This document shows positions 8,501 through 50,157 of a stretch of DNA of 55,394 bases, piece after piece (position 1 is the first letter of the stretch; every line of letters starts with the position of its first letter). The notes under the pieces were generated by a model that had not been told where the DNA came from, ran no database searches, and saw only the letters and a list, made by a program, of their open reading frames with translations. The translations under genes and the position numbers were made by a program. Source of the stretch: a virus (taxonomy: Duplodnaviria > Caudoviricetes); the IMG/VR virus record IMGVR_UViG_3300048813_000197, positions 1 through 55,394 of that record; one strand, written 5' to 3'.

Positions 8501-11500
8501 TGCCGACAAAGAACAACCCGGCGCGGGTGAGCTTGTCCTTGACGGAATCGGATGCTTTATCCAACACTGCAGCATCTGTGACCGTCAACCCGGCCAGCAT
8601 GTTTTCGAAGAGGTCTTTGGCTTTCTCTTTGAGTTCGCCGTCCTTCGAGACGTACTCCTCAATCTTCGTCGGCGGGATGATCCTGGCATCCTGGAGCAGT
8701 TGCGAGATTTCCGCAGACCGCTCGCGCATCGCCTCTCTGACGGTCTTCGCCCCTTTTGAACTGAAGATATCCATGGAATTGACAATGCCGGATAACCGCT
8801 CCGTGAACTCTGGGGTGAGTAGGCGCTTCATGGCCTCGCCCTGTTCCTCGTCCGACATGCCACCTTCGGGGCCGCGATTCAATTCGGTGCCCAGGCGCGA
8901 CCATTCGATATCTGACTCAATCGGATTATCGAGTACCTTGACGAGAACAGGGTGTTCATATTTCAGAACCTCCGCCGGATCGATCCCAAAGAGCATTGCC
9001 CGGGCGTGGAGTTCTTTGACGTAGTTGGCGAATTTATCTGGCGACTTGCGAATAGCGGTAAGCAACCCAAGCGCACGCCGGTTGCCGGAGATCACATCCG
9101 CCTTTTGGTCGAGAATCGGCGGGCCGGTGGTAGCCGATACTCCATTGTCGAGTACCTGGTCGGGGTCCGGGTTCGTACCGATGGCTTCAACCCGGGCCTG
9201 CGCATTCTTGCTGGTCTTGTAGTTGCGCGGCTGGCCCTTCTGGTTATACCCCTCCCTCTCCTCATAAGTGAACGGCATGTGGGAAGTACGCACGTCGCTA
9301 GCTTCCATCAGCGCGTAATGCGCCTGAAGCTCAGCGCCGTTCCCGTGGGAGACAACTCTGGTTTCGCGGCCAACCGAAATCTTGCCAGCAAACTTCGGCT
9401 GCGGCGCCGGAGCCGGATTCTGCACAGACTCGGCACCCGCGACAACCGCATCCGCCTTCCGCGTATTGAGGTCCGCCGCCTGCTGCGCTGTATTCGCGGC
9501 TTGCGTCTGCCCCTGCGCGCGCAAGTCATCCGCCGCCTGCTGTAAATCGGCGGCCTGCGATGAAAAATGAACAACCTGCTTGACGGCCGATTCCCGCGTA
9601 CCCTCGGCGTCTTCCCTGAATTTTGCCGCAGTCGCCTCGGCCAGCGCCTTGAGAATGTGCTCCTCGGCCGCGAACCGCACCTGCCGCATCCGGGTCAGAA
9701 ACTCGTTGACCGCCGGCGTCCGGACTCTGGCCGGAAGGCTCTGCGCATCGCGCTCTATTTTGAATAAATCCTCAAAGTTATTGACCTGGCCGAAGCCCAT
9801 CTTCGACGCCTGCTCCGTCAATCCCTTGCTCACCCGGTAAAGCGCCTCGAGCGATGGCAATTTGCTCGACAGCGAATCGTAAAGCGCCTGGGTCATCTCC
9901 TTTTGGTGATCGGTCCGCTCCTCGGCAACCAGCCGGTCGGCAACATCCATGTCCATCGCCTGCCGGGTAGCGTCCCTTTGCGCCATGCGGAGCTCGCCGC
10001 GGTGCTGTGCCAGATTCTCGGCCCCCATGTTCGCGAGATCGATGTGCTGGCCAGACTGCATCCGCTCCCTGATGTCTGTCGTGACAAACGCATCGAGCTT
10101 CGCGGGTTTCGCGCGCAGGTATTCAGCCAGCGCCGAAATGCGCCGTTCCGTGTCCAACGAGTCAAACGATCGGCCAAAGAACTTCTCGGTGTGCTCATTG
10201 AGGTCTTTGCTCGTTGCCGGGTCGGCCTTGAGTGTGTTCTCGATATTCAGCCGCGAGATGATGAGTTTGGCGGTGCCGGCAAAGAGATCGGCACCCGGCG
10301 CGAGCTGCTCCTGATCCCCGGTTTCGGTGCGATCGAGGAATGGCTTGAGTGTGGCGTCTAGCCGGTCCGCATGCTTCGCGTCGACGACATGCTGCTCATA
10401 GGCCGGCGTCTGCTTGAAGGATTCCCATTGCTCGGGGTGACTCTTCTCGAGCCACTCGGCGGCCACCTTCTGCCGGTAGACGGGCAGCGACGAAAACGAC
10501 TGGCCCATTTGCTGCTCGGTCAGTTCCTGAACCTTGGCTTCGGCCGCAGTGACTTGTGCTGTGCGCTCCGCTGTCTCGCCCGCTGTCGCGCGGCGATCAA
10601 CTATCGGGACGCCACCCGCTTCCGGATGCTCGGGGTCATACCGCTGGCCCGATTCACGCTCCGTCGTCCAATGGGTGCCGCCTGGGGAGACGTTCTTCGA
10701 GGTGCGGCCTTCGACAACACCAAAGCCGCGCTCTTGTTCCGTGGATGGCTTTTCTTCCGCAGCCTTCCGCGCAGCGTATTCCGTCGCCTGCTTTCTGGAT
10801 TCCTCTTCCTGCTGGCGCTGAAGTTCTTCCTGCTGCTGGCGCGCTGCGGTTTCCCGGCGAAGCGCATCCTGCTTATAGGCCTCTTCCCTCGCCTGGCGCT
10901 CGACAATTTGGCGAGTGAGATTCTTGGCCGCCTGCAAACGCTGCTGGCGTACTTCTTCTGTAGTGGGTTCGGCTGCGGCTGCTCCGGCTTCTACCGCACG
11001 CGGGTCGATCGCTCCGACTCTCGACTTCTTTTCCTTGGCGCGGATCCTCGCGGCTTCCTGCGTCACCCGGGCCTTGAATCGAGGATTCGCGTCTTCGACC
11101 GCTTCGTAAAGGACCGACGCCTTCTGCTCTGAGGTCAGATCACTGAACTTCTTTTTGTAGGCGGACTGCGCCTTGTCATTGAGGATGGCGGTGTTGTCGC
11201 GCTCCTTGAAGTTCTCGATTGCGGTTCGCGCGCCGTGCTCCGCGTAGTGCATCCCGGCGATGACGGCGACATTGCCGAGAAGACTGCCCCATGCTTCCGG
11301 GGCATCGCCTTCCTTTGAATCGCTACTCACGCTCGCGGCAGTCGCGCCAGCTACACCCTCGACGCCGCTTGTGGCGAGATCGGCCTGAAAGCGCAACCCC
11401 ATCGGCGCGGCAATGCTTTCCGGCATTGTGTAAATCGATGCCAGAGAGTAAAGGTTGTCGATGCTGGTCATGCCTTCGACGGACTTGGTAAAGCCCGTCA

Positions 11501-12323
11501 CGGCGCGGGAGAAAGCATTCTTGCTGGTCGGATCGAAGATTTTCTGAAAGGTTTGCGAACCAGATACATTGGCGACCGGCGCTCCGAACGTCTTCGCTAT
11601 CTGCTGCTGGAATCCGACAGTTTGCAGAGCCTGAGCATCGCCTTGCGCCGCCCGATGCTCCAGCATCACCTGCGGGTCGAGTTCGGTTCCCTTGAACATC
11701 GCAGACATGCCGGGGGCGACTGGTATTCCCCCGAAAGAACCGCCGCTGCCAAACAGAACTTCGGCGGTACCACCAGCAATCTTCTTGGTTCTCCTCCACC
11801 ACGTCGGCTCATAAACCGGATCGGGAGGCTTCGTCGCTGGCTGCTGCGGAGCGGTCTGCAAATCCCATCGGTCATTTGCGTTGTATGCGGCATGCTTGGC
11901 CTGCTCGTCGGCGGCGTCGAGGTCTTTCAGATAACGGCGCTCGTCCGCTTCGTTCGCAAATGTCGTCGAGCCAATCGACATCATCGGCGCGATTGCGGCG
12001 ACGTGCGGGACTTTGGAGAACGGAACCTGCTTTACCTGGCCGTTGACCTTGATAGCATAAGTTCCCTCGCCCTTGCCGGTCTTGGGGTCTGGGGGATTGT
12101 CTTCGATCTTGGAAAGATTGTCGGCGGCGGGCGGGCGGGCGGGCTGCGCTGAGAACTTAGCGAGTTTTGAGTTGACGAGATCTGCGAACTTATCTTTGCG
12201 CCCACCTTCAATCTTCTTGAGCTTAGAGTTGACCAAATCCGCAAACGCATCTTTCCCGCCGCCGCTCGGAGGGGGAGCAACAGGGTTAGCCGTGGGTGAT
12301 GGAGCAGTGGCTTGGTCGGCCAT
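2529..12323 (-). CDS. giant internal virion/ejection polyvalent protein (ddrB-like ParB domain, HExxH zincin-like motif, Strawberry-notch-like SF2 helicase)
   Basis: 3264 aa; GPPILD..DVISGNRRA (ParB-like), TFIHEVTH, GPTGSGKT, FDESAE, YSSATP, GGIGASAHD, QGTGRTWRYG; last gene of the virion module. Confidence 0.85.
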   Translation of the reverse strand: MADQATAPSPTANPVAPPPSGGGKDAFADLVNSKLKKIEGGRKDKFADLVNSKLAKFSAQPARPPAADNLSKIEDNPPDPKTGKGEGTYAIKVNGQVKQVPFSKVPHVAAIAPMMSIGSTTFANEADERRYLKDLDAADEQAKHAAYNANDRWDLQTAPQQPATKPPDPVYEPTWWRRTKKIAGGTAEVLFGSGGSFGGIPVAPGMSAMFKGTELDPQVMLEHRAAQGDAQALQTVGFQQQIAKTFGAPVANVSGSQTFQKIFDPTSKNAFSRAVTGFTKSVEGMTSIDNLYSLASIYTMPESIAAPMGLRFQADLATSGVEGVAGATAASVSSDSKEGDAPEAWGSLLGNVAVIAGMHYAEHGARTAIENFKERDNTAILNDKAQSAYKKKFSDLTSEQKASVLYEAVEDANPRFKARVTQEAARIRAKEKKSRVGAIDPRAVEAGAAAAEPTTEEVRQQRLQAAKNLTRQIVERQAREEAYKQDALRRETAARQQQEELQRQQEEESRKQATEYAARKAAEEKPSTEQERGFGVVEGRTSKNVSPGGTHWTTERESGQRYDPEHPEAGGVPIVDRRATAGETAERTAQVTAAEAKVQELTEQQMGQSFSSLPVYRQKVAAEWLEKSHPEQWESFKQTPAYEQHVVDAKHADRLDATLKPFLDRTETGDQEQLAPGADLFAGTAKLIISRLNIENTLKADPATSKDLNEHTEKFFGRSFDSLDTERRISALAEYLRAKPAKLDAFVTTDIRERMQSGQHIDLANMGAENLAQHRGELRMAQRDATRQAMDMDVADRLVAEERTDHQKEMTQALYDSLSSKLPSLEALYRVSKGLTEQASKMGFGQVNNFEDLFKIERDAQSLPARVRTPAVNEFLTRMRQVRFAAEEHILKALAEATAAKFREDAEGTRESAVKQVVHFSSQAADLQQAADDLRAQGQTQAANTAQQAADLNTRKADAVVAGAESVQNPAPAPQPKFAGKISVGRETRVVSHGNGAELQAHYALMEASDVRTSHMPFTYEEREGYNQKGQPRNYKTSKNAQARVEAIGTNPDPDQVLDNGVSATTGPPILDQKADVISGNRRALGLLTAIRKSPDKFANYVKELHARAMLFGIDPAEVLKYEHPVLVKVLDNPIESDIEWSRLGTELNRGPEGGMSDEEQGEAMKRLLTPEFTERLSGIVNSMDIFSSKGAKTVREAMRERSAEISQLLQDARIIPPTKIEEYVSKDGELKEKAKDLFENMLAGLTVTDAAVLDKASDSVKDKLTRAGLFFVGMQNAGENWNLASMNTDAVRLANRARNQSSYLEHFQRLEPKPAAEETESHIERMLHPERFRLTQTMLGFDDQPTHKPPLPAVEALAMALEESPRAYATMMARFAEKANGAQGTLYGAEHPADVFTNEIASRYGLKVIPEEWGAVTPLPEVVKAAIEDGRGPLPVEPAVHAETAIADVTPDPESVTQVIPEGPRTLQELRKVLETHPNLTPEQAEAATQYLEHILPRALGVSAEELMGNRRLNFAVGGKEENYRGYMEMIDEATGVIRLLDSADISTFIHEVTHYIRKFMKPEFQKIANDFVGAKPGEEWTDAQEEMFSKANERYHVDGGIRRGKLEKVFAVLSRAMQSIYNQATNLKLAKGSPALTAMFDHWYDWTRAERKPITARIDVDELAEGAKGEWPANLKSIDFSPREVSSNGQKFVFTDKEAADEFLGDKKNGVKAWRMYKEPGKDTIYMLADAKKGKKLYQPSLNETIELAKKARDLETQLKREQDPRRQALLRGQLNGIEDKLRGATGIIGGSSEPKDTSVIQLVHGISERPTMNEPTTPAQAVTAQQAHGDPTAIALGGDRGKSGRVPDGPATDGQKAVDRVPEQRGEADREPAAGKGKGTAIAKPDSNPLAGVKAAKLKAPEVPRGTPVVDPAKWREHVEALGLPTGTPPPTVRISPDVRQLMIYPGQSEAIEGALSALQQFDGTILAGPTGSGKTWMLSAIADHLLGTGGDKVGLIVTRSQNLIEGDDGYRETARKLGVDVDMLPSKMSDLQTGMYAATYATIRGNKGVLSIPWDFVLFDESAEARNWTDSEQGKAVVMLGHAAKKVVYSSATPHSTVMELGYMHKLGLWPKGGFTEWAKQFGLVEVGPNTYSGGASAGKLEKLRQQLVERGQWQTLHKDMDGVEAHVALVPQTEEVRTGVRNIRKAFSMAMEGFKKAGMSKYLTPTAGHEAIYLKRFIEGARLKDAIDLGKKAIADGWKPVFFSEYRSPADEGMDFFHNLPGDMGAQINKLLPPLPDVVGAMRDAFGDKVGIFAGEHNELRAEQLDDFMAGSKDALYMTYSAGGIGASAHDKVGDRPRMGVFLGLPWGGIMFEQGTGRTWRYGAKSNVANVFLTSDTLPEMKVLATKILPRMRALKAAVFGEKIESRLSKNLRESVGIPEEMLQYEQGEEVKPQSAEWEQDGEGASYTHIKDLELPKAKDAKNKGMKYKGQGRKLYQGPREEDLDPWQKAAHEAWADLLTRTKELPAPAARAITANEGIIKLEATEAGRRAMGSGEPVKAATERKTRDMENEALIWMDDMKDNARAASYFVRSNIWMFGTSGDCAVEKIFRENKLPKEGAELKRRMIDYDLKSGNYRGEFGGMVAKIIFENKLRPPEHELVTKIIEGKTTSDDPRINKAVAEYRKFFATVRQRLADAGLAVVIYEGGKRKEVPFSKIEEDPNYWPRMYDWNRKFVVKGEGGKPEVTSLGDIMKMPKGSERREKLIDKIAEQRGISKSQAQAFFDRNSSGIRLAGNIERAREFDIPMYGRDRQAIERYVNEVAEKLAATEVHGQFRQKTDPLIDNLPNERDRKLVSSIITSDLKPARLHDSDRFFLRQANRWLVLSKMSLSVLKLPFHLAKTSLATNTRSVARAILQGTISPVEVRRNAVDCGAMTNYMRQAWMREYGMRTGGLDQKMLDFNGFTAMMYISRAIAAGAGRLWLEKYAYPELAKDPKNPMLRRKLTDLYGFTDEELDNLAAKGYGPATVKKIELGAANWTTGSGRPSELPPALRGTSGEPLYDRLTTLLRISQSLHGFMFKTANLVNRTVWQELYHADWKSPAPYQLIARFGANFGIAGWALQEMLHLRHQMSGSSEAEIEKRRREWLAAHPASKEALFTAMADVSMGMGVEVLTQFFNEVATHDPKDKQKLVQQNRVINAATDMFVGVAARDAYNAVKAVKDYQSTFYDTGPHKETPEERRTKIAEQLANEEVPLSRYAVTPHKVVPVRHGRRRKLAGVM

Positions 12324-14086
12324 TACTTGATACTACCGCCTTGCGCCTTGAATTCTGGATCATCGGCTAATTGTTTTGCCTCGGCATCCGTCAGAGTCAC
12401 CGTGCCATGAAACTGTCCGTGCTGGTATACCTTGCGGGGTTTCGGTTGATCGCCACCCGCCTGCCCCGGAGACGAGGCCGGGGCTGCGGGCGTAGCACCG
12501 GCCTGCGGCGATTCAGGCGTCTTGGTGCTTCCTGCTGGCGCTGCCGCCGGGCCAAACAGCGGCTGCATCCGACTCATGGCCGCGCGCCGGGCCTGGGGGG
12601 ATAGCGCCGTTTCCTTTGAGCCACTCATCACGGCTCGAATCTGTGTCTGGAGGTCGCGCTCCAGATTCTTCAATCCGGCTTCGTCCACGCCGCCAGAATA
12701 CTTACCGTCCGCGCCCGGCTTGCCGAGGTCGGACTTCGAGTGATACTGGTAGCCGTTGTCGCCCTGGCCCACGATATTCGCCAACGCATCGTCCAGCGTC
12801 TTCATGTCCTTGTACTGCGGCAGATTCCGCAGCCGGTCGATGGCCGCAGAGAGCACATCATTGTCGAATTGCTTCGGCTCGGCAATGGCGTCATGCGCGA
12901 TGGACCCGGACTGCTCCTGATTCGCGCCTTCGACTTTCCGCCGGACAAGGGCATCGCGCTCGTCGTCGGAAAGATTCGGAGAGTGTTCCTTGTAGTAGTC
13001 GTCCCACTTTTTGTAATTCTTATCCGCGCCCGATCCCGCTCCGCCACTTCTCCCGCGAGGCTCGTATGTAGCCTGCGACGGCCGCAAAATCTCCGGTGGT
13101 CCACCGTCTTCGGGAAACTGGATAATCTCACCAGTCCTCGTCACCTGGGTCTTGAGGTGCGGGTCAATCTTGTACCCGGCGCCGCGCAGCACTTCCTTAT
13201 CCTGATCGGTGAACTGATATTTTGGATCCGCTTCCGACTTCCGGATAATGGCGTCTGCCGCAACTTTAGCTTCGTCCCCCGGCTTACGCGGCTCGATCTG
13301 CTGTTGCGCCTGGTTGTACTGCTCCCACATGGCCGATGTCCACTGGCTCTGCGGGGTCTTGTTGAGGTCGTCGATTTTCTGCTGAGCGTCGAGTTGAGCT
13401 TGCTGATGAGTGAGTTGCTGGCCCTGCTGGCCGGCAGCCGTAACCTCGTTCTGCGCTCCTTGCGTCCGCGCTGTTCTCGCGGCCTGAGCTTCCGGCGTGT
13501 AAAACTGCTTCACCTGCCAGAGCACTGGCGGCCCAAGTTTCTTCTGAAGCGCGAGTCCTGCCGCAGCCTTAACCTTTGGATCTGGACTCTGCAAATCCTG
13601 CATCAACTGTTGCTGTTGTTGCTGCGGAGATGGCGGCGGCTGATCAGCCTGCTTCTTGTTCGACTTCTTTGGTTTTCCGCCATCTGGCCCATTGACTACC
13701 TTGTCGCGCCAGTCCTGCAGTGCACCCCATGATCCATTTACCGCCGATACAGCCGTCGTGTATTCGTCGCTATTCGGGTCAGTTCCCGATTGCGCCAGAC
13801 TGTAAAGTCGCTGCGCATCCTGCTCATAGGAGGCATGGAGGTTGTCGGTTTTTTCCTGGAACTGTTTTGTGACGTTCGCCGCATGCTGAGCCTTGCCCTG
13901 CATGTATCCGCGGAACACGTTGTCGAGAACTCCAGCAACATTTCCCAGTTTCGTATTTGGAGCGCCTGTGAATTGAAATGGCGGATTTTGTGGCGCTATT
14001 GGAGCCGGATTTGGTGCCGCAACCGGAGGTGCTTCGTATGGCTGATACGGTTGTTCCGCTGTCGGGTTGTAAGTGCTTGATGGCAT
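12323..14086 (-). CDS. internal virion (ejection) protein
   Basis: 587 aa Q/A/P-rich helical protein in ejection-gene position; TAATG coupling to the giant ORF. Confidence 0.7.
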   Translation of the reverse strand: MPSSTYNPTAEQPYQPYEAPPVAAPNPAPIAPQNPPFQFTGAPNTKLGNVAGVLDNVFRGYMQGKAQHAANVTKQFQEKTDNLHASYEQDAQRLYSLAQSGTDPNSDEYTTAVSAVNGSWGALQDWRDKVVNGPDGGKPKKSNKKQADQPPPSPQQQQQQLMQDLQSPDPKVKAAAGLALQKKLGPPVLWQVKQFYTPEAQAARTARTQGAQNEVTAAGQQGQQLTHQQAQLDAQQKIDDLNKTPQSQWTSAMWEQYNQAQQQIEPRKPGDEAKVAADAIIRKSEADPKYQFTDQDKEVLRGAGYKIDPHLKTQVTRTGEIIQFPEDGGPPEILRPSQATYEPRGRSGGAGSGADKNYKKWDDYYKEHSPNLSDDERDALVRRKVEGANQEQSGSIAHDAIAEPKQFDNDVLSAAIDRLRNLPQYKDMKTLDDALANIVGQGDNGYQYHSKSDLGKPGADGKYSGGVDEAGLKNLERDLQTQIRAVMSGSKETALSPQARRAAMSRMQPLFGPAAAPAGSTKTPESPQAGATPAAPASSPGQAGGDQPKPRKVYQHGQFHGTVTLTDAEAKQLADDPEFKAQGGSIK

Positions 14087-14094
14087 CTCGTCTC

Positions 14095-14703
14095 CTAAAG
14101 TGCGAACAGTGCGCCGAGGCTACCTGCCGACCCTGCAGCGCTGAAGATGTCGCCACCGAGGCTGCTCAGAGCCCCCAACTGCTGCCCTTTAGCCTGCTGT
14201 TGAACCTGATACTGCTGCATCTGAAGACCGCCAAGCGAAGTAAGGGCGCTATTCGCGGAATTCAATCCAGAGATACCAGTGCCAGCCGCTGAAATCGATT
14301 CGCCGGTTCCTTGACCCGCGAGAGATGCGAGTGCATTGTAGCTACCGCTAACCGCGCCAGATGAGACTTGTCCCACTTGAGCGCCCTGCGAAACATCCGC
14401 CTGCTCCAAAGCAAGATTCTTCTCACCGCCGGACGGAGCGTTATTCATGATGTTCTGCTTCGCGCCCGCTGTCGCTTGTGCAATCTGTTGGGTTTGCGGG
14501 GCTACTGCGCGCGCAATAGCATAGGGGTCGCCCGAGGCGAGCGTGCCGTAAAAGTTCTCCGCCGACTGAAATCCCGGGTTTGCCTCATTGAACAAAGTTT
14601 GCGAATTCTGGTTTTGAGATTGAGCGATTGAGACAAGCGCATCTTCGTTCTGCTGGAGTCCAGAGGTAACAGTAGGCGTAAGCCCAGCATTCGATTTTCC
14701 CAC
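14095..14703 (-). CDS. DNA transfer/pilot protein (P22 gp7-like composition)
   Basis: G/A/Q/S rich with glycine-rich hydrophobic C-terminus; position. Confidence 0.7.
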   Translation of the reverse strand: MGKSNAGLTPTVTSGLQQNEDALVSIAQSQNQNSQTLFNEANPGFQSAENFYGTLASGDPYAIARAVAPQTQQIAQATAGAKQNIMNNAPSGGEKNLALEQADVSQGAQVGQVSSGAVSGSYNALASLAGQGTGESISAAGTGISGLNSANSALTSLGGLQMQQYQVQQQAKGQQLGALSSLGGDIFSAAGSAGSLGALFAL

Positions 14704-14729
14704 GGCGCACCTCTACGCGCCCGATTATA
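14704..14729 (-). promoter_or_regulatory. -10 element and RBS-occluding hairpin for ejection genes
   Basis: Perfect TATAAT, then GGCGCG-TAGAGG-TGCGCC immediately before GTG. Confidence 0.5.
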
Positions 14730-14771
14730 GCGGGAAAGTCTGGGAACGGAAGGGGTTTGCGGGAGGGAAAT

Positions 14772-15245
14772 TCAGGCGCGCCCGATCATCCTCGCGAAGT
14801 GGTAGTCGTTTAACGGATCGTCCAGCACAAGCCGCGAAGCCCGGTACCAGCCATTGAATTCTCTCGCCAGATAGCGTTCATTGATGAGAACCACCTCGTC
14901 GGTAAGCGCATCATTCCCGAACCAGGTAGCCCCATTGAACAGGAATCCACAATTAAACTTGCTGCGGGAGCACTCTACTCTTACCCGCTGATTCCAAATA
15001 ATGTTCGCCCATACACGCCCGACCACCCGATATGGGGACATGATGAATCCCGGCCTCATATTGCCGTACCAGAGCGTTCCGTAAGCTCTGTGCGCAGTGG
15101 TGATGATCGCGTCGTTGTCGTCGAACTCTGTGAGGTGTTGACCAAAGAATTCGTGGTTGATTGCGGGCTTTGCTGCGGCTGCGGCTGGCAGCGCCAATGC
15201 TGCTCCGACCGCGACGAGCGACTTTCCGAAGTCTCTGCGATTCAT
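14772..15245 (-). CDS. Tat-signal peptide fused to a major-capsid A-domain-like fragment
   Basis: MNRRDFGKSLVAVGAALALPAAAAA; AYGTLWYGNMRPGFI...NQRV...FN...NERYL aligns with capsid residues ~188-272. Confidence 0.7.
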   Translation of the reverse strand: MNRRDFGKSLVAVGAALALPAAAAAKPAINHEFFGQHLTEFDDNDAIITTAHRAYGTLWYGNMRPGFIMSPYRVVGRVWANIIWNQRVRVECSRSKFNCGFLFNGATWFGNDALTDEVVLINERYLAREFNGWYRASRLVLDDPLNDYHFARMIGRA

Positions 15246-15252
15246 ACCCACC

Positions 15253-15993
15253 TCACATCCAATTCAACGGCAAATACGGCTGCTCTTCCTTTGCCGGCTC
15301 AACTTCCGTGATAGTCAACTTCTCTTCCGGTTCTGGCTCGAATGGCTTAGCCTTCCGCCACTCATTCACCAGGAACTCACTGACCACTTCCTCAAAATCC
15401 GCCCTCAACAGCGCCGAGACCACCATCGGAACCAGTTTAGTCCCGCGCAACTGGAAGCAGGGGATCTGGCCGCAGTCGTTGAAGCCGAACCGGGACATGA
15501 ACTTTGCGGTCAAGACGTTATCGATGTACCTATTTCCGATCACGCATTGAAGGTCAAACTCCTTGAACAGATAAGCCAACCCGAGCATGGTCAGAATCGC
15601 TTGGTCTTCCGAACCCCAGGCACTCGAAAAAAAGGCGTAGCCGCAGATGAGCGACTTCTCCGTATTCGGCCCACCCATTGAAACCGTCGAGAACGCGAAG
15701 CCGAGCTCGACAAACTCCTCGTCCACCCATTTGCCGAGAATCAACAGGACCGGCCGCGAAGCGAGATAGGTGACGACTGAATTGAAGTCCGAGGCTGGGT
15801 TGCCGCCGAACGTCGCGGAGAGAATTCCGTCTCCAGACCGTCTTTTGGATTCTCTGCATCGACGATACAGATGCGCAAGGAATTCTTCGTCGAACAAGTC
15901 GCGGCGGTTGCGATCATAACGTATGACCTGCAAATCACCCCATCTATACTCGTCTTCTTTTAAGGCGCCGAGAACATCAATTTCTTCACTCAC
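15253..15993 (-). CDS. GNAT (RimJ/RimL-like) acetyltransferase
   Basis: LGLAYLFKEFDLQCVIG...NVLTAKFMSRFGF..CG; GNAT genes commonly neighbour podovirus internal protein genes; start reassigned to GTG 15993. Confidence 0.7.
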   Translation of the reverse strand: MSEEIDVLGALKEDEYRWGDLQVIRYDRNRRDLFDEEFLAHLYRRCRESKRRSGDGILSATFGGNPASDFNSVVTYLASRPVLLILGKWVDEEFVELGFAFSTVSMGGPNTEKSLICGYAFFSSAWGSEDQAILTMLGLAYLFKEFDLQCVIGNRYIDNVLTAKFMSRFGFNDCGQIPCFQLRGTKLVPMVVSALLRADFEEVVSEFLVNEWRKAKPFEPEPEEKLTITEVEPAKEEQPYLPLNWM

Positions 15994-16038
15994 GCTTGCA
16001 AGTATACACTTCCAAATCATGCTTGCAAGGAGTAAAAT
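15994..16038. promoter_or_regulatory. overlapping divergent promoters with two CTTGCAAG palindromes
   Basis: Minus: TTGCAA-16-TATACT-7-GTG; plus: TTCCAA-17-TAAAAT. Confidence 0.6.
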
Positions 16039-16091
16039 AGAGGGGTCGGGTGTTGAAGCACCTGGCCTTATTGCTACTGGAGGTAGCGACC

Positions 16092-16796
16092 ATGACCCCT
16101 CACGAAATCAGTTTAGCACCATGCCGATGCGGTGATCCTAACTGCATAACCCCGTTCGGATATTGCCATTGCGGATGCAACCGGAAGACCATCGTCTCCA
16201 TAAGGAACAGCACAATCCACCGCAAGAAAAAGGGATTCCCGCTTTTCTTTATCAACGGGCATAACGGCGTAAAACCGCGCCCGGCGATAACACAACCGAG
16301 TGATCTATATATAAGACTTATTGCTTTGACTCGGGGCCAAGTGGCGCGTGTCGATACTGCCGAATACGAGCGCATCAATCAATACCATTGGCGGGCGCAA
16401 TGGAGTGAGGATATGCATTCATATTACGCAGTGCGGAGTGTGATCGTTAACGGTAAAGAATCTGTGATTATGATGCAGGGCGATGTTCTCCCTGCTCCGG
16501 ATGGATACGTCACAGATCATATCAGTCGAGACACACTGGATAACCGCAAGATCAATCTTCGTTATGCCACTAATTCCCAGAACGGTATGAATGCAAAGAA
16601 GCGATCAAATAACACCAGCGGGCATACGGGGGTTTCTAAAAATAAAAAAGATGGATTATGGTGGGCCTCAATACGATGCGAGGGGGAATTGATCCATCTT
16701 GGCCGATTCATTCTCATTGAAGATGCCATAGATGCGAGGCATAAAAAAGAAATCGAACTATTTGGGGAGTTTAGTCGCATCCATAGAGACCAGTAG
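16092..16796 (+). CDS. HNH-AP2 homing endonuclease
   Basis: TDHISRDTLDNRKINLR, NNTSGHTGV, WWASI..HLGRF...DA. Confidence 0.9.
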   Translation: MTPHEISLAPCRCGDPNCITPFGYCHCGCNRKTIVSIRNSTIHRKKKGFPLFFINGHNGVKPRPAITQPSDLYIRLIALTRGQVARVDTAEYERINQYHWRAQWSEDMHSYYAVRSVIVNGKESVIMMQGDVLPAPDGYVTDHISRDTLDNRKINLRYATNSQNGMNAKKRSNNTSGHTGVSKNKKDGLWWASIRCEGELIHLGRFILIEDAIDARHKKEIELFGEFSRIHRDQ

Positions 16797-17099
16797 ATTA
16801 GAGATACGGAGGAGTCCATACACCACCATCGCCTTCGGACCTTCCTTGACCAGGGCCGTGCAGGGCTTGACGCGCATCCACGGCAAAGGGTGTTCAATCG
16901 TCATTCGGTCCATACGGTCCATCTGCCATAGGATAGTCGCGCGCCATGAGTATTCGCGATCCCAGCCATAATTCGGCGTCCGCCACCTGCCAGTCCCGAA
17001 TTGAACCTGTCCGCCAACTTCCACCTTGTAGCTGCCATGCGGATAGAGCGCGGTCGGCGCTTGGAAGTATTCGCGGACTTCGACGAGTTCGGGGTTCAT
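16758..17099 (-). CDS. portal-fragment-like small protein
   Basis: VEVREYF..YPHGSYKVEVGGQV vs portal YPRGRFLIVAGGKV; ATGA coupling to upstream ORF. Confidence 0.55.
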   Translation of the reverse strand: MNPELVEVREYFQAPTALYPHGSYKVEVGGQVQFGTGRWRTPNYGWDREYSWRATILWQMDRMDRMTIEHPLPWMRVKPCTALVKEGPKAMVVYGLLRISNLLVSMDATKLPK

Positions 17100-17497
17100 C
17101 GGCTATGCACATCCATGCACATCGGCGTTCCAACTCCGCCGAGGAAATTCAGTAGCGTCAATGCCGGATCCTTTCTCTCCGCCGCACTGGGCCAGACTTC
17201 ATCAGTTACCCAGCATCGCGGACGGCCCACTACGCCGGTTTGCCTGCGGAGATAGCCTAAAGTCAGAATGACCGGCTGCTCGTCTTCGGGGTACAGATGT
17301 CGATACTTGTCCGCCGTAAGCGCCATCGTGTTGCTGTTACACACGACGATGTAGCAGAATCCCGAAGCGTACTCGTGCACGAACTCCAACAGCGCCGTCG
17401 TCTTGCCAGTCTGGCGGCCACGAGTGACAACCTTACCCTTGCCTAGTTCGGCTTTGATGGAGTCGATGGAGGTGCGCATGTCGGTTGTTGTGCTCAT
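17096..17497 (-). CDS. minimal terminase-like P-loop ATPase
   Basis: RGRQTGKTT (Walker A), CWVTDE (Walker B), VGTP (motif III) in 133 aa; ATGA overlaps at both ends. Confidence 0.7.
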   Translation of the reverse strand: MSTTTDMRTSIDSIKAELGKGKVVTRGRQTGKTTALLEFVHEYASGFCYIVVCNSNTMALTADKYRHLYPEDEQPVILTLGYLRRQTGVVGRPRCWVTDEVWPSAAERKDPALTLLNFLGGVGTPMCMDVHSR

Positions 17498-17697
17498 CGC
17501 GGCCACTTCCTCGCATCCCACACTGATTCATCGAACTTGGCAAAAGATCGAAAGTCGCAGCCTTGACAACTGACAACTTTTCTTATCTCTGCGGCTATCT
17601 CGAAGTCGCCATCTAGCCTCCATGAGACACCGCATAGATAGCAAACCGGGTGCTTGCGCAGATCTATCGGCTCGTGATTGTTGTGCGGTCTGCTCAT
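17494..17697 (-). CDS. small Zn-finger protein
   Basis: CYLC, CQGC; ATGA coupling. Confidence 0.65.
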   Translation of the reverse strand: MSRPHNNHEPIDLRKHPVCYLCGVSWRLDGDFEIAAEIRKVVSCQGCDFRSFAKFDESVWDARKWPR

Positions 17698-18119
17698 CTT
17701 GCAATCCCCGCCGCCGTCCAAACCGCCCCGCCAATCAGCAGAACGATCGACGAGAAGCCCAAGGCCAGCACCAGAGAGTATTTGCCGACGGTGTAGTTGG
17801 AGTTGCCCGGCGGAGTCGCCATGGAGACCATGAAGGCCTCGTAGAAGAACGCCAGAAAGCCGCAGAACAGCAGCGCATTGATCGCCGCCAACAGGAACAT
17901 CGCCGCAGGCCAGAGAGTCGGCGAGTAGTCATAGGCCCAGGTCGCGCCGAAGATGCCGAGCAGAACCTGAAAGTAGCCGAAAACTGAATAGCAGATCAGG
18001 TGAGGGAAGAAAGTCCCCTTGCCGCACGGGTCCATTCTGTAGGGACCGGCTGGCAGACCGAGGCGGAAGATGATCCAGAGGATTAGAGGCAGCGCGGTTG
18101 CTGCTTCGATGATGAGCAT
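17694..18119 (-). CDS. four-TM membrane protein
   Basis: Four hydrophobic segments; RBS AAGGA. Confidence 0.7.
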   Translation of the reverse strand: MLIIEAATALPLILWIIFRLGLPAGPYRMDPCGKGTFFPHLICYSVFGYFQVLLGIFGATWAYDYSPTLWPAAMFLLAAINALLFCGFLAFFYEAFMVSMATPPGNSNYTVGKYSLVLALGFSSIVLLIGGAVWTAAGIAR

Positions 18120-18325
18120 TTCAATTTCCTTTCCTTCATGGCAACCAGATCGCCGCCGGTCGCCAGCATGAGTTGTTCGTCGATGGTGCGATGCGCCTTG
18201 ACCGCCTCCTGATGAAGACTTCTCCAGAATTCCAAAGGTGCATCTGCGTATTCAGGAAATTCCAACTGGAGACGGGCAAGGTGCGAGATGCCAACGGTGC
18301 GTGGTTTGAGGATCAGCGATTCCAC
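18083..18325 (-). CDS. small protein with TerL Walker A-like N-terminus
   Basis: LILKPRTVGIS vs TerL IVLKPRQTGIS; TAGTG coupling. Confidence 0.55.
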   Translation of the reverse strand: MESLILKPRTVGISHLARLQLEFPEYADAPLEFWRSLHQEAVKAHRTIDEQLMLATGGDLVAMKERKLKCSSSKQQPRCL

Positions 18326-18630
18326 TACCGCCGTCCGACAACCTGGGGGCCACCCTGCGGAACGGCAAGACCGGCCGCGTTCGGTCCTTGCTCGAATTGG
18401 TCAGCGCTCGCCTTCAACTGGATGGACGCATTCAGCATGGCACCGAGCGGCGGATCGGCAATCGAATAACTCTCGTCGAGAATGAGTGCGCCGCCAACCC
18501 TGCCGAGGAACTTGTGAATATCCCTGAGCATATTGACGATCTGTGATTTGGTGGGGGCTTCGCTGAAAGAGATTGATGCGAGTTCAAGGTTCTTGACTTC
18601 CAATTTGTTCCCTCGTCTTAGCGTAGTCAC
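18325..18630 (-). CDS. hypothetical protein
   Basis: First gene after candidate promoter; coupled to next ORF. Confidence 0.6.
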   Translation of the reverse strand: MTTLRRGNKLEVKNLELASISFSEAPTKSQIVNMLRDIHKFLGRVGGALILDESYSIADPPLGAMLNASIQLKASADQFEQGPNAAGLAVPQGGPQVVGRR

Positions 18631-18671
18631 GCTTGCAACAAAGAATACGCTTGCAACCGCCGTTTCCGCAA
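18631..18671 (-). promoter_or_regulatory. candidate promoter with two GTTGCAAG boxes flanking the -10
   Basis: TTGCGG-18-TATTCT with GTTGCAAGCG on both sides of the -10. Confidence 0.5.
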
Positions 18672-18680
18672 CAGGAAATT

Positions 18681-18920
18681 TCAGGCACTCGCAACCCGCG
18701 CCGTCGCCGCCCGGCTGAGATCGTGGAAATCCTTGTCATTGTCTGACAATCGCACCACTCTACATTGGTCGATAAAGTGCGTCTCGAAATACTGCTCCGC
18801 GCACGAAAGGCAGAAGAGATGACCGTCTACTTTGAATACGGCTTTACTGTTCCTCGACCGGCAGTTTGACAGTTTCCGTTTACGCTCACGCGCGCGTTCA
18901 AGCCCTTCGCATTGCGCCAC
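18681..18920 (-). CDS. small Cys-containing protein
   Basis: GTG after GGAGG; FCLSC motif. Confidence 0.55.
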   Translation of the reverse strand: MAQCEGLERARERKRKLSNCRSRNSKAVFKVDGHLFCLSCAEQYFETHFIDQCRVVRLSDNDKDFHDLSRAATARVASA

Positions 18921-18931
18921 TGCTAGACCTC

Positions 18932-21900
18932 CTAGACTGGTACTTCTTTCAACTGATAACTGTGGCCCGCGCCGATTGGCTTCCAAAGAACGCGCACGGG
19001 AGTCCACAACTGAAACTGGTTTGGCGGGACTGGCGCGTTCTCGACCGCGATAAATCGCCATGTCCTGAAAGTGAATGCCGTGGTGCCGGGATTGACGTTG
19101 CCATGCCTGACGCGGACCACTATCCGGGTCGCGGATGCTGGGAGAGTAAAAGTAAAATAAGGGGTCGCATTGTTGTCTGCGTAGAGGTTAACCGTGATCG
19201 GAACGGTTGCGCTGTAATCATAGTACGATTCCTTCGCAAACTTACTTTCCTTGGTTCCGAACTCCACCCAATAGGAATCCGCACTGGCGCTATACTCGGC
19301 TAATTCCGCCGCGTAGATATTCTCCTGGTAGAGAGTGGGCGCAACCGTCACCGCCATCGTATGCAGAATCGAAGCACGATATGCTTGCTGGCCGGAACCA
19401 GCATTGACCAGCAATTCGACTTTTTGCCTATTCGTGCCCGTATTGATCGTCGCCAGGGGAACAGAAATTGCTCCATCTTCGAAAAGGAGGGTCGTATTCA
19501 AGACCTGATTCTCGGTGTTAACATCAGTCTCGATCTGGTTCCATTGCTTTGGGAAATGCGGCTTTCCCAAGTCGCGATACGGATGCTGGATGGTGATATT
19601 GATTGGCGTCTGGACGAGAGCGCCGGAAACCCAGCCGCCGTCATCATAGTCGCCTACCTGATCCTGCACCACAGCGTAATTGCCGCCACCCATCGACTTG
19701 CCGACGAGCAGCGTGTTGATGTCTTTCTCCCAGAGCATTGCGGTTGCGGGAACGTCGTCATTCCGGTAACGCTGATATTGAGTATCGTAGTCAAGCCGAT
19801 ACCGCTGGCCAGAGTTGAGCGTGCTCACGTAAGAGCAGTAGACCACGTTGTTGTAGTAAGCCAGGATCGACTGCGAGAAGTCCGCTTGGTTCGCTTGCGG
19901 CGGCAGGCATTCCGGATTGCCACGGAAGATCCACTCGACGGGAAGTGTCTTGTAAACGCCATCCGCGCCAGAGAATTCGCGCAGGCCGTCCGCAGCCTGA
20001 TACCAGATCGCGCCTTCGACCTCAATCCATCCCTGCTGCGCGACGATGCCATGGACAGAGCCTGTCGGCTGAGGATAAGGATTTGCGCCGCCGACGATAA
20101 TCCACCACGACTTCAATGTGCCGACAATCAATGTTCCACGCCAGTTGATGACGGCATTGATCGGATCATCAGGAGTTGAGACCGGGATGTAATTCTGAGG
20201 TCCAAAGTTCTCCGGCAGGCCCTTCTTCGAATAGTAGAGATAGTGCGGATTGTTTGGATCGCCGGCCAGCCACGCCTGGTTATAGGCGAACGCGCAGAGA
20301 TTGCAGGCTTGCCGCGGCACAGCATAGACGTTGACCGGCTCGCCGACGTTGTGCTGCAGGCGAATAACGGCCGAGAATGAATCGACTCCGCCCGCAATGA
20401 CTGAAACGATCTCGAGATTTGACGGATTACCGATCGCTACTAATTGATTGGGAAAGAAGTCTGCCGCCGGAGCAGAGACCGTAACAATCTGCGGACTGAA
20501 TAGCGAGTAAATCGACGATCCTGGTGGAGATGTTGCCACAGAGAGCGTCGTCTGAATCGGGTTGATGAGCGATGAAGTAACGGGTGGGTCGTTGTCGAGA
20601 ACCAGAATCTGCGCCTGCTCTATGAACGCATCCGCAATCACATCCTTGAACACCACCTGGCCAGTTCCTGTGATGTTCGGAATCTGTCCAACCTGCACCC
20701 AGTTCGCGCTGAGAGTTCCACCTCTCCGATAGAAGCGAACATGCGTCACCTGGGGGTCCGGCGAGTAGTAACCGACGCATTGCGCAGCTTGCCGCAGGAA
20801 GATGGGCGCCGAAGTCGAGGCTAGATATCCATAGTCCTCATTGAACTCTTGAGCAGGTGTTGGATTGGATTCAGTGCCGGTGTTGGCGTTGTAGTAGGTC
20901 TGCCGCCAGTCGTAGCCCACGCCGGCAAAAGACGACGGTCCGTACCCCCATTGCAGGTAGAGGCCGTTGACGGAGAACGATACGCCGCCGACATTTGCAT
21001 TTGCGGTGACGGTCAGAGTCCAGCCGGTGACGTTCGCCCAATCGAGGCCAGCCTGGCCAGCTTGTCCAACAGGAAGGAAGTTGCCGCGCGGGATATAGCA
21101 TGCCTGCCACGCGCTTGCCCCTGTCGAGATGTTCGATGGCTGCAATTGCGCCGAGGTCGTGCCCGGTGGTTGCCCGGTAATCAAGTTGAGGGTGTCAGCT
21201 AGAATCTGACTCTGCGTTGCCTGATAGGCGAGCGTGCTGCCACTCAAAGCCCCTTGGTAATAGGCTGGGGAGATGAATGCAGAATAGTAATTGCTTGGAT
21301 TGCTGGTATTGCTGTTGCCCACCCAGAACTGAAGTTGAATCTGCGATATGTTCGCCGGATTCGATGTCAGCAGGGTGATAACGATCAAGTCGCCGTCCGT
21401 CACCTGATTGTTTTGGCTAAGGTCAAGGGCGGGCGATGCGCTCACTGTTCCGCTGGTACTTGCCGCAACATTCCCGGCCCAGGCTGAGATTGGGAATGCG
21501 GTTGTCGTGGGCGGCACCCACTCATAGAATCCCCATGCGCTCATCTGCGATGGATATGGGGCGCTGTACTCGTCTGTCAAAACACAGGCATACGGCGCTG
21601 CCGCGCCGCCGGTCACATAGCCGCCAGCAGTCGCGCCAATCAGTGTGGCCGAGGTGAAGGCCACCGTCAGAGTGGTCGTGGTCGGCGCCGCAATAACTTC
21701 ATAGAATCCGTCCACAAGATCGGAAGATGACGCATATATCGCAATGAGCGCGCCGGCTGACAATCCGTGCGCCGTCGAAGTTCTGATCAGGAGTTGCGTA
21801 TAGAGTCCGCCAACGAGCGTTTGCGAGGCAACCGATGCAATCGGAATATTGACCGAAGTGTTGGTGTTTAACAGCGACAGCATCCCATTCGTCACGGGTC

Positions 21901-38299: not shown

Positions 38300-40019
38300 G
38301 TTCGGCTTCGATCCTCTCTTGTTCTGCGATTGGGATTCCGAGTTTCCGGTAAAGAGCTTTTCTGCTTAGGACTCCCATTTTAAGCATCGAAAACGCGATC
38401 TGCACTTCCTCATTCTTCTCGATGGCGAGCAAGCTGCCCTTGCGGATAGAGAACACCGCCTGGCGCACGAACTGCTCCGGCTCCATACCCTTCGCCATCG
38501 AAAACCACTGGCCGAAGGGCTGCTCAAAGTCGGCGTCCGTCAGACCCTTGGTGCCGAATTTAGCGATCCGGCTCTTCGAGGTAGAGAATTGCATGATGTT
38601 CGAGGCGACCTGGGTGCCGGTATCGGTGAGGAATGAGTAGAGGCCCCGGCCCATGAAGCGCACGGGGATCGATCTGGAATTCAGGATCATCTCCAAAGAG
38701 TCGCCGCCCGGCACCTGCTTTTTCTGGAGAGATTGATTGATGGCCGACGCGCCAGAGGTCATTTCCTGCTCTTTCTCGACACCCTCCTTCATCTGGAGAA
38801 CGTAGGCCGGCAACTCGGCGGGCTTGGGGAAAGACGGTTCCCGCGGCGTGTTGTTGTTGTACATCATCTTCGAACCGGGCGCGCCGGGATCCATCGAATC
38901 CCAGACGGACTGCGCGAATGCCGCCTTCGGCGCCACGATCCTCGGCTCGATCACGGCGCGAATCATGTCCATCAGTCCGCCGTTGATCCGGTTTACGATG
39001 TCGGACATTTGGGCAATGGGTTCCAAAGGGCTAACTCCCTGCGAAGACCACGGAACCCGAATCAGCCGGAGTTTGGCGAAAGGAAACATGCCATGCCAAT
39101 AGGGATTGCATTGGTCCTGGAGAACCTTGCCGCCGGCGACAATCAGGAATCGGCCGCGCGGATACCACGGCTCTCCCGGTTCGACAAGATACGACCAGTT
39201 GTACCGCTCGTCGCCTACGCGCTTCGTCTCGGAACCCTCGTTGATCGAAGCGTCCTTGAACCAGAACTGTTTGAGCATCGCCTTCGGATAGCGGCTGCGC
39301 TTGCCGTCCAACTGCCGCTTGCCGAGCATCTTCTTCAACTGCGGATTCAGCCGGACCCATGACGCCTGCGACATCTTGCCTGGCCGCGACACTTCACCAG
39401 TTGGCTCGTTGGTCTCGAGGTCGGCTTGCACATCGTTCGCCAGCTCGCCAAACGTCCGCTTGAGAGTTTCGATCGTCACCGGCCAGCGGCCAATGACGCA
39501 TTCGTCATCCTGCAGCTTCTTCCCCGCGCCGATACTCATCACATTCAGCGGTCCAAGGGGCATGAACTCGTTGTCCCCCATCCCGTTGTTCATCGCTCCG
39601 TTCCACTGGATTTTGGCGAATCCCGTGTGGAGCAGCGCCCACATGACGGACTGGGTGAGCTCCGCTTCGAAGTCCGTCACCTGCGCCCACATCGTAATCA
39701 TCTCGTTGAGCAGGGTCTGGAGAGCGGTGAATTGCTCGTCTTCGTTGTGGAATTTGACCTGGAAGTCCGGCTCGATGTCGGTAAGAATGCCCGCCATTTC
39801 CATGAACTGCCGGAAGAGGCGATTGACGGTTGGCCGGCTGCGGCCGTAGCGGGATTTGGCATTCCACTGCTGGCCGGAGATGTAGTCGATGAGCCGGGAT
39901 GTCAGCCGAATTTCGCGGGAGTCGGCCAGTTCCCGCTCCGCTTCGTCGTAAACGGAGTCCGACCAGGCGAGAACTTCCCGCTCCAGCGCTGCTTCCGGTC
40001 TCTCTGTCGAATCGGCCAT
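38217..40019 (-). CDS. portal protein (P22-like)
   Basis: 600 aa between terminase and scaffold; YISGQQW, PTVNRL, GFAKIQW, NPY..FPF motifs. Confidence 0.9.
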   Translation of the reverse strand: MADSTERPEAALEREVLAWSDSVYDEAERELADSREIRLTSRLIDYISGQQWNAKSRYGRSRPTVNRLFRQFMEMAGILTDIEPDFQVKFHNEDEQFTALQTLLNEMITMWAQVTDFEAELTQSVMWALLHTGFAKIQWNGAMNNGMGDNEFMPLGPLNVMSIGAGKKLQDDECVIGRWPVTIETLKRTFGELANDVQADLETNEPTGEVSRPGKMSQASWVRLNPQLKKMLGKRQLDGKRSRYPKAMLKQFWFKDASINEGSETKRVGDERYNWSYLVEPGEPWYPRGRFLIVAGGKVLQDQCNPYWHGMFPFAKLRLIRVPWSSQGVSPLEPIAQMSDIVNRINGGLMDMIRAVIEPRIVAPKAAFAQSVWDSMDPGAPGSKMMYNNNTPREPSFPKPAELPAYVLQMKEGVEKEQEMTSGASAINQSLQKKQVPGGDSLEMILNSRSIPVRFMGRGLYSFLTDTGTQVASNIMQFSTSKSRIAKFGTKGLTDADFEQPFGQWFSMAKGMEPEQFVRQAVFSIRKGSLLAIEKNEEVQIAFSMLKMGVLSRKALYRKLGIPIAEQERIEAELKAEALEKIQLAQLAGAGQHAAGHGKK

Positions 40020-42941: not shown

Positions 42942-43284
42942 TTTTGACCTCCTCGATTTTCTCTTGCTCAACCGGATACGCGCTCTCCAACAACTTAGAC
43001 ATCGCCTCTTCGATAGCGCACGCCATCGCTAAAGCGCCGTTGTTGTAATCGGTATCTGGCCTATAGGATCGGTCAAGGTTTGGTTTGAAGGGTATTGGTT
43101 TTATTGGCTCCGCTATCCACTCGCCGGTATACCGCTCAGCAACAACCATTCCTTGCTTGCCGCTGTAAGGGTTAAAACAGATTTTCACTCGGGAAAATCT
43201 CTTGTTGAGATCGAAGTACCCCTCAACCGCACGTTTTGGTTTTATCGCTTGACTCGTCTTTCGCAGAATCGATTCAAAACTCAT
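42925..43284 (-). CDS. hypothetical protein starting with a TerS-like peptide
   Basis: ATGA coupling to terS; MSFESILRK. Confidence 0.65.
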   Translation of the reverse strand: MSFESILRKTSQAIKPKRAVEGYFDLNKRFSRVKICFNPYSGKQGMVVAERYTGEWIAEPIKPIPFKPNLDRSYRPDTDYNNGALAMACAIEEAMSKLLESAYPVEQEKIEEVKNESTS

Positions 43285-50101: not shown

Positions 50102-50157
50102 GATCGCTCCTTGGGCGATTAGGCTTGCCGGTGCTATCAACACCTGACTCCTCAATT

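Follow-up and report, generated by a model that had tools for sequence, protein, structure and literature searches.

We analysed a 55,394-nt stretch of tailed-phage DNA (Duplodnaviria; Caudoviricetes), the record IMGVR_UViG_3300048813_000197 at its full length (hereafter the window), which is estimated to be 61% complete. The subject of this report is an open reading frame (ORF) of 113 aa at positions 16758-17099 on the minus strand, present in a single copy in this 55.4-kb record. The ORF is a real gene in the late operon of a podophage-like virus that has not been cultured, and its product is a member of a rare, so far undescribed family of proteins of 53-107 aa that come from uncultured podophage-like contigs and are known from sequence. 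As a whole, the data are best explained, with a probability that we put at roughly 0.45, by a real late-operon gene of a modular family whose N-terminal segment derives from the phage portal protein or mimics it. If this is true, it would be, to our knowledge (no dedicated literature search was made), the first stand-alone family built from a short invariant piece of the portal, and it would offer a testable handle on the portal surface that is contacted by assembly partners or immune sensors. Should the likeness to the portal prove spurious, what remains is an ORFan family of the ordinary kind, from a phage clade about which little is known.

Relatives of the small protein are few and uniformly short. 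A word-indexed search of 5.8 billion proteins returned 10 of them (78-119 aa), and a HMMER profile search of 1.84 billion representative proteins returned 15, every one between 53 and 107 aa. Since all 15 are this short, the family has no fused or long forms, and the stand-alone form that a first-pass annotation of the window had proposed is borne out. Scans of viral and metagenome contigs added further loci (L002-L004, L006-L012 and L028). A pattern scan for KEGPKAM yielded 16 stretches, namely one new member (L028), three contigs already known and 12 unrelated proteins.

No model for the family was found in Pfam, PHROGs or NCBIfam, and NCBIfam also has nothing for eight neighbours of the small protein. 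Nine weak matches were obtained in a PHROG search of the family, none of them portal-named. The ESM Atlas gave no usable match to the window copy and, for its closest homologue, just sub-threshold Kelch-like rows (scores of at most 0.79). A phage collection held no DNA match to positions 14000-20000 of the window and no match to its portal at E 1e-10; tblastn of the small protein against the same collection gave just hits at E ~1, to tail genes of Bacillus phages.

The family consists of an N-terminal beta segment, a swappable middle and an invariant C-terminal hairpin. In an alignment of 30 sequences, K-E-G-P-K is invariant within this hairpin (ALVKEGPKAMVVYG in the window copy) and a near-invariant W lies a few residues upstream of it. 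At the other end, an N-terminal strand of the form hVEVRExF is followed by a G-containing hairpin (G-G), and the middle part is wholly different between subgroups. The window copy has the K-E-G-P-K hairpin, the upstream W and the hVEVRExF strand, its conserved core being residues 1-95; the sole departure from the family is a tail of 18 residues. We take the KEGPKAMV hairpin to resemble the K-S-G-G-P-x-M-T-V hairpin of DUF2158/YodC; a reading as a member of that family was dropped, with a Pfam match in none of the 30 members.

The portal of the window is encoded at 38217-40019 on the minus strand (phrog_156, E 9e-9; SU10_portal, 26.6 bits, under the cut-off of 30), and the only solved structure to which it is related by sequence is 9lbz_A, the portal chain of N4 (E 1.2e-4). 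The portal clade has a characteristic motif in invariant columns, YPRGR-hairpin-GGKV followed by NPYWHG..PF..PW, of which NPY..G..PF is common to the window portal family and to the N4 chain.

Sister alleles of the window copy match this part of the portal. The clearest case is the L003 allele, whose start aligns without gaps to portal residues 305-324 (29.6 bits, E 5e-6, 9/20 identical). Of these identities, eight lie in invariant or near-invariant columns of the portal family (P306, Y307, W308, H309, P313, F314, P323 and W324), the ninth, G310, being off that list. By Smith-Waterman alignment the match reaches a z of 8.2, and none of 300 shuffles scored as well. At the DNA level the stretch shares 35 of 60 bases with the portal gene and just 8 of 20 third positions, so it is no recent copy.

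Two further alleles extend this observation. The L011 allele, which lies in an unrelated context, matches portal residues 305-361 at E 7e-4 (2/300 shuffles as good). P0024, a database member with the common N-terminal type, matches residues 290-324 at E 0.004 with 14/37 identities (1/300 shuffles as good), and its match spans the second strand of the hairpin matched by YPHGSYKVEVGGQV of the window copy together with the downstream KLRL...PW. When a hidden Markov model (HMM) of portal residues 272-330 was run against the 1513 ORFs of all loci, the L003 allele came next after two portals (E 4e-5 as an open frame, 7e-5 as a called protein), with P0024 at E 0.25; the full portal HMM gave the L003 allele E 0.0023. 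For 14 of the 30 members the best local alignment pairs the N-terminal part with portal residues 278-324, and as these members are mutually related they do not represent 14 independent events.

The N-terminal part is collinear with portal residues ~286-324 in several alleles, and the window copy keeps just a faint trace of this. Its weak match and its G-G hairpin do fall in the same register as the matches of the sister alleles. Because it is these sister alleles that match the same portal stretch, a portal-like segment is supported for the family, and the putative portal wing-like fragment that the first-pass annotation saw in the window ORF is not. On these alignments we consider it rather probable that the N-terminal segment of the family derives from or mimics the portal stretch; that the hairpin of the window copy itself belongs to this relationship may be so, and we lean slightly against it.

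A number of results weigh against a portal relationship, above all for the window copy. The first-pass annotation had compared YPHGSYKVEVGGQV (ORF residues 19-32) with YPRGRFLIVAGGKV (portal residues 286-299). Both strings are present and 6 of 14 positions are identical, but this is chance level: at least 6/14 identities somewhere in the portal were found for 152 of 200 shuffles of the window ORF. The flanking strings that the annotation added on either side are out of register, the three matches starting at ORF residues 6, 19 and 70 versus portal residues 247, 286 and 310. For the window copy as a whole, a single BLASTP comparison gave 18.9 bits (E 0.08) and Smith-Waterman alignment a z of 1.4 (36/300 shuffles as good), and there is no significant portal match for it. 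It lies outside the 45 best matches listed for the HMM of portal 272-330, the last of which has E 17, and it is absent from the list of the full portal HMM up to E 50. Scored against the family profile as single sequences, the 155 window ORFs of at least 100 aa place the portal 13th, behind several frames that are surely non-coding.

Profile comparisons give the same picture. Aligned by hhalign at the site singled out by the annotation, the family (30 sequences) and the portal (24) gave a probability of 2.0% and P 0.024 over 20 columns, and 2 of 100 column shuffles score as high. Subfamily profiles gave P 0.053 and 0.26 against the portal, both with their best site at portal 279-306, and P0024 against the portal profile gave P 0.08. 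Profiles should strengthen a true remote homology, and since they do not, this result counts against the relationship. None of the 30 members matched a portal model in Pfam at E up to 10, and a PDB profile search with the family returned no portal. The conserved core, moreover, has 95 aa versus ~500-750 aa for a full-length portal, which forms a dodecameric ring. Two more resemblances to the portal, of the middle modules of some alleles to PKAM at portal 245-248 and to PKA..F..WD at 364-374, were set aside as not significant (for example L009, z 0.3).

The significant sibling matches are themselves short (20-57 residues). In addition, the N-terminal module of L003 and L011 is not alignable to that of the window, so that P0024 and the shared register are all that connects these matches to the window copy. 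Of the proposal that the ORF is a portal fragment, the portal-like segment is partly supported, at family level only; profile and structure searches with the window copy and the family profile returned no significant portal hit, the outcome that the annotation had named as refuting it.

Structure models add little in favour of a portal relationship. The first AlphaFold model, built from 11 sequences, had a predicted local distance difference test score (pLDDT) of 47.6 and was unusable; the better of the two models reached 65.7, with ~80 for residues 1-40 (three strands) and ~55 for the rest. The best Foldseek match in the PDB had E 0.9, and VIA-align against 48,161 chains gave a maximal Z of 2.8 (3.1 in a second look), with no portal among the matches listed in either search. 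In a viral fold library the first row is a portal, A0A6J5NCQ6, a suggestive match that falls well short of significance: E 0.21, TM 0.28, probability 0.41 and rmsd 15 Å, with 26% identity over 76 columns. A podovirus connector follows at rank 31 (E 1.1).

In a different explanation, the small protein is unrelated to the portal. It would be a beta-rich accessory of the late operon that works with the 255-aa protein encoded downstream, for example as a regulator, chaperone or adaptor, and the portal-like stretches would reflect convergence or a common beta-hairpin/aromatic motif. In line with it, every profile test against the portal fails, and a portal-like motif occurs in an unrelated protein. 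This protein, of 340 aa and with an XRE-type helix-turn-helix (HTH) domain, is encoded on a 112-kb viral contig (L016:6633-7655, plus strand). At ~7101-7160, after a Cys-rich stretch, 20 of its residues align to portal 305-324 with 11/20 identical, and the full portal HMM gives it E 0.0063; it was found by a motif-derived pattern, which limits its weight as evidence to the residues outside that pattern. The motif may therefore be a general structural one. A scan with back-translated SPYWHGLPP produced four stretches, of which one is the L003 contig, one is L016, and two lack any protein context, being a 19-residue frame and a frame without further likeness.

The genomic context of the small gene also bears on this explanation. 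The order of a four-helix membrane protein, the small gene and the 255-aa gene, with variable inserts, is found in 7 of the 11 loci examined. In L002 and L012 the small gene overlaps the 255-aa gene directly, and an 11-nt stop/start overlap between the two is ancestral in the lineage of the window, which fits proteins that work together. Other ORFs are nevertheless inserted between the two genes in the window, L003, L004, L006 and L007, and the small gene also occurs in other contexts: in L008 it stands beside a tail-protein gene, and L010 and L011, which carry the same small protein as each other, differ again. The acyltransferase assignment of the 255-aa protein is weak (Table 1), and it has no match in Pfam or NCBIfam. 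A complex prediction for the small-protein family with residues 1-215 of the 255-aa protein scored 0.12 and 0.00 versus a mark of 0.32; run without controls, it speaks neither for nor against an interaction. Against this explanation stands the L003 allele, with its E of 5e-6 and eight of nine identities on the conserved portal positions, and so does the fact that three alleles are collinear with the same portal stretch. We regard it as somewhat unlikely. A pairing of GNAT toxin and small antitoxin was also considered and dropped, as the 255-aa protein is no recognisable GNAT and the small protein matches no antitoxin family.

The allele of L010 and L011 (L010:1382-2226; L011:236-1714) combines a portal-like N-terminus with a 15-residue tail past the hairpin. 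Its neighbours look methyltransferase- and glycosyltransferase-like as read from their translations, without a family search, and it does not lie by the 255-aa gene.

At the shared locus, the genes of the late operon are tightly coupled, and accessory genes have been slotted in between them. The inserts before the small gene are zinc-ribbon ORFs and a P-loop ORF, and those after it are ORFs of 60-123 aa and HNH genes; the ~255-aa gene is followed by a Q/N/G-rich protein of ~200 aa and then, where the contig is long enough, by a homologue of the 587-aa protein of the window. Upstream junctions of the small gene are ATGA or GTGA overlaps, and each of the optional inserts in the relatives keeps an ATGA-type overlap. 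In the window, such overlaps form a chain at 17494-18119 on the minus strand, running from the membrane protein (17694-18119) through a zinc-ribbon-like ORF of ~67 aa, whose start is probably the ATG at 17697, and the P-loop ORF to the small gene.

The middle part of the small protein is exchanged wholesale between otherwise near-identical phages. The portal on the L003 contig is 97% identical to that of the window, and the genes flanking the small gene have 77-95% DNA identity. The two small genes themselves share only an island of 47 nt (16862-16816), which is 100% identical and has unrelated sequence on both flanks. In the public sequencing run X5 the island has a depth of 320 and is joined to many different flanks. 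The 14-residue hairpin serves as a fixed joint for module exchange.

Such an island might also be conserved mainly as a DNA or RNA element, be it for starting translation of the next gene, as a junction for recombination or as an HNH homing site, with the ORF being minor as a protein. Its perfect identity between unrelated flanks and its many joins would suit an element of this kind. So would the position of the next start codon, which is an ATG within the Tyr/His-Gly codons of the hairpin, inside the island, in five loci (L002, L003, L004, L006 and L007) and in a form of the window locus that lacks its HNH gene; in the window itself, the ATG at 16819-16817 in the Tyr-Gly codons is the ancestral start of the next gene. 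An HNH cassette lies at the very edge of the island in the window, and ~150 nt away in L004. The codons speak for a protein, however. Over 11 loci, 8 of the 10 codons for LVKEGPKAMV have synonymous variants and the only amino-acid change is L to M (L010/L011). As third positions vary while the peptide is kept, the hairpin is conserved as a peptide and not only as DNA. Members from protein databases have conservative replacements (V/L, M/I and A/S), the N-terminal strand is conserved too, and no Rfam match comes near significance. We find a mainly nucleic-acid role very unlikely.

The 18-residue tail of the window copy is explained by a mobile element. Contigs of four public runs were placed on positions 15900-17600, where uncovered parts are evidence of nothing. 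A DNA contig of run X5 joins position 15980 directly to 16814, with four other letters between the sides. In this HNH-less form, the small gene (minus strand) ends two codons past Tyr-Gly, and the 255-aa gene starts at the ATG inside the Tyr-Gly codons, as in L002, with the ancestral overlap of the two genes. The junction contig identifies 15981-16813 as a mobile HNH cassette whose insertion point coincides exactly with this stop/start overlap. At its right end it provides the new tail of the small protein, so that the window frame runs 18 codons (16761-16814) beyond the usual end, and at its left end a new start and the first 13 codons (15981-16020) of the 255-aa gene. The cassette thus rewrites the ends of both neighbour genes without breaking them. 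The tail is antisense to the 3′ end of the convergent HNH gene, and the ancestral small protein had ~97 aa.

The HNH-bearing form is no assembly artefact, since the junction between the HNH gene and the small gene is spanned with 0 differences by contigs of run X2, an RNA library, and run X3. The RNA-library contig spans 16629-16989; DNA carry-over is possible, so that it is not taken as a sign of transcription.

Free-standing HNH homing endonuclease cassettes of phages are intergenic and polymorphic for presence or absence. With an HNH match above the cut-off and a cassette that is polymorphic in this way, the gene in the window is a homing endonuclease. Like such cassettes, the HNH_3/phrog_99 gene resides on an 833-bp segment that is cleanly absent from the contig of another metagenome, the segment adjoins DNA that is conserved more strongly than any other in the region, and there is another HNH-AP2 gene at 49400-50155. 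This likeness concerns the neighbour of the small protein and not the small protein itself, whose hairpin DNA is a putative homing site. The second gene (minus strand; phrog_99, E 1.3e-37; AP2, 38.7 bits) shares just ~95 nt, at 75% identity, with the 5′ end of the gene at 16050-16796. Another HNH gene is found near the small gene in L004 (6197-6976, minus strand); its similarity to the HNH protein of the window is lost in the C-terminal third, it overlaps a 98-aa ORF, and it looks frameshifted or decaying.

Upstream, the ATG of the small gene overlaps the stop of the P-loop ORF (open frame 17096-17521) in an ATGA; the first-pass annotation had called the two genes coupled. The start of the P-loop ORF is most likely the ATG at 17497, which gives it an ATGA overlap with the preceding gene as well. 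The same annotation saw in this ORF a mini-terminase, and here we cannot follow it. Similarity to the terminase large subunit (terL) of the window is not significant: BLASTP gives E 0.07 outside the Walker region, Smith-Waterman alignment a z of at most 2.1, and hhalign, in 42 columns that cover the Walker A stretch with the RQTG shared by the two proteins, P 0.047. Among its relatives (38 of 125-224 aa, none with a recorded Pfam domain), a weak AAA_14 match is seen in 16 of 25 and Terminase_6N, at E 0.13, in just 1 of 25. Sequence matches in the PDB start at E 0.49, with a herpesvirus origin-binding helicase, so that no relative was found there, and 133 aa leave no room for a nuclease domain. 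The ORF is a generic small P-loop NTPase, for which a terminase origin is possible but not supported. It is an optional insert that is found ahead of the small gene in the window and L003 and is lacking there in L002, L004, L006, L007 and L012. Two pairs of database proteins, P0012/P0149 and P0009/P0179, combine relatives of the small protein and of the P-loop protein; in each pair the contigs agree in length and source, and the two proteins are putative neighbours.

Another explanation, which follows an idea of the first-pass annotation, invokes host immunity: the small protein, perhaps with the P-loop protein, would be a decoy or inhibitor of Avs-type STAND proteins that sense portal and terminase. 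Consistent with this, the L003 allele keeps exactly the portal-invariant residues, phages whose portals are 97% identical have exchanged N-terminal modules, as in conflict genes, and the best site of the P-loop ORF on terL is the Walker A stretch. Against it stand the window copy, which has no significant portal likeness, and the P-loop gene, which 5 of the 7 loci with the shared order lack upstream of the small gene. Furthermore, anti-defence genes are usually early, and the small gene is part of a late structural operon.

Avs proteins are described as portal and terminase sensors (10.1101/2025.06.06.658234). The anti-Avs proteins named in the accessible part of that report, ORF55 (a DNA ligase) and ORF83 of phage DruSM1, are an enzyme or nucleotide-binding protein and not mimics of portal or terminase (10.1101/2025.06.06.658234). 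They have no sequence relation to the small-protein family (no PHROG or Pfam match) and would share a target pathway with it only if the decoy explanation were right, which we judge improbable.

A broader version would make the family a set of interchangeable portal-surface mimics. Each would combine the constant hairpin with an N-terminal module, the alternative modules copying consecutive, invariant pieces of portal ~279-324, sometimes accompanied by a P-loop protein imitating Walker A, and would titrate or blind whatever recognises the packaging machinery. Host pattern-recognition defence of the Avs kind, or a portal-binding factor of a competitor or satellite, would be the target, and the swapping of modules at 97% identical portals would be the trace of an arms race. 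We give this little credence too.

Under our preferred explanation, a late-operon gene with a portal-derived or portal-mimicking segment, it is possible but on the unlikely side that the small protein, which is mostly beta and tightly coupled in translation to both neighbours, serves for docking or as a mimic. By strand addition, its invariant hairpin would bind an unchanging partner; its N-terminal part, portal-like and quickly exchanged, would offer a portal surface to a usual contact of the portal. Candidate contacts are the portal itself, a partner in packaging or assembly, or a sensor of the host.

Compared with the SU10/N4 portals (PF23899; N4 gp59, PDB 9lbz and 9yf4), the sibling alleles share the collinear 286-324 stretch with its PYWHG..PF..PW. 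They differ in size (53-107 aa versus ~600 aa), lack the rest of the portal, and carry a family-specific C-terminal hairpin that has no significant portal match. In the N4 virion, fragments of ~16 residues, modelled as gp52 residues 1-16, are placed within the tail tube where portal and tail meet, and gp51 lies next to the wingtip of the portal (PMC13434306). The short invariant segment (14-16 residues) in a late-operon protein recalls these docking segments of ejection proteins, as an analogy only. The small protein has no sequence similarity to the N4 ejection proteins, and the 3264-aa ORF of the window matches no solved chain.

Table 1. Positions of the features discussed, numbered along the window
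Feature	Positions	Strand	Evidence
Small protein, conserved core (residues 1-95)	16815..17099	-	10 relatives by word-indexed search, 15 by profile search; alignments A1, A3 and A4
Hairpin YPHGSYKVEVGGQV (residues 19-32)	17004..17045	-	portal-matched stretch, 6/14 identities; predicted strands 23-28 and 31-35, pLDDT ~80
C-terminal hairpin ALVKEGPKAMVVYG (residues 82-95)	16815..16856	-	K-E-G-P-K in 30/30 sequences
Foreign tail (18 codons and stop)	16758..16814	-	relatives mostly end 1-5 residues past YG; HNH-less contig joins 16814 to 15980
Portal residues 279-324, family-aligned stretch	39048..39185	-	invariants P306, Y307, W308, P313, F314, P323 and W324
HNH cassette, 833-bp insertion	15981..16813	+	DNA contig of run X5 skips exactly these bases
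HNH(-AP2-like) homing endonuclease gene, free-standing	16050-16796	+	HNH_3, 29.9 bits versus cut-off 24.8; phrog_99, E 6.5e-36
255-aa downstream gene, weakly acyltransferase-like	15253..16020	-	alignment A6, 7 loci; phrog_4470, E 0.057; PDB GNAT chain, E 0.98
P-loop NTPase, 133 aa	17096..17497	-	Walker A GRQTGKT, Walker B-like VTDEV; ATGA overlaps on both sides

Elsewhere in the window, the major head protein is encoded at 34866-35840 on the minus strand, and further along the same strand are big ORFs of 692, 1377, 587 and 3264 aa. The small gene lies upstream of ORFs of 202, 587 and 3264 aa, which we take, by position alone, to be genes of ejection proteins. Promoter-like and terminator-like sites occur at background frequency only.

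The giant 3264-aa ORF (2529-12323, minus strand) comes after the 202-aa and 587-aa ORFs, which are of low complexity, and this layout recalls the ejection cassette of N4. Its sole PHROG matches are to phrog_5143 (E 3.3e-23), whose function is unknown, and, over residues 1944-2107, to a helicase-like stretch. A closer likeness of these genes to those of N4 was dropped, with no detectable match among solved chains for the 3264-aa ORF and no meaningful PDB sequence match for the 1377-aa ORF.

The terL gene (40803-42971, minus strand; phrog_2, E 5.6e-17) is long, at 722 aa, and its PHROG matches are split between residues 62-232 and 338-610. Its Walker A motif, KPRQTGIS, is deviant and does not contain GK[ST]. 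Finally, a DNA methyltransferase is encoded at 45833-47104 on the plus strand (N6_N4_Mtase, E 2.1e-46). As the profile of 221 positions is spread over residues 29-398, this enzyme has an insertion of ~150 residues.

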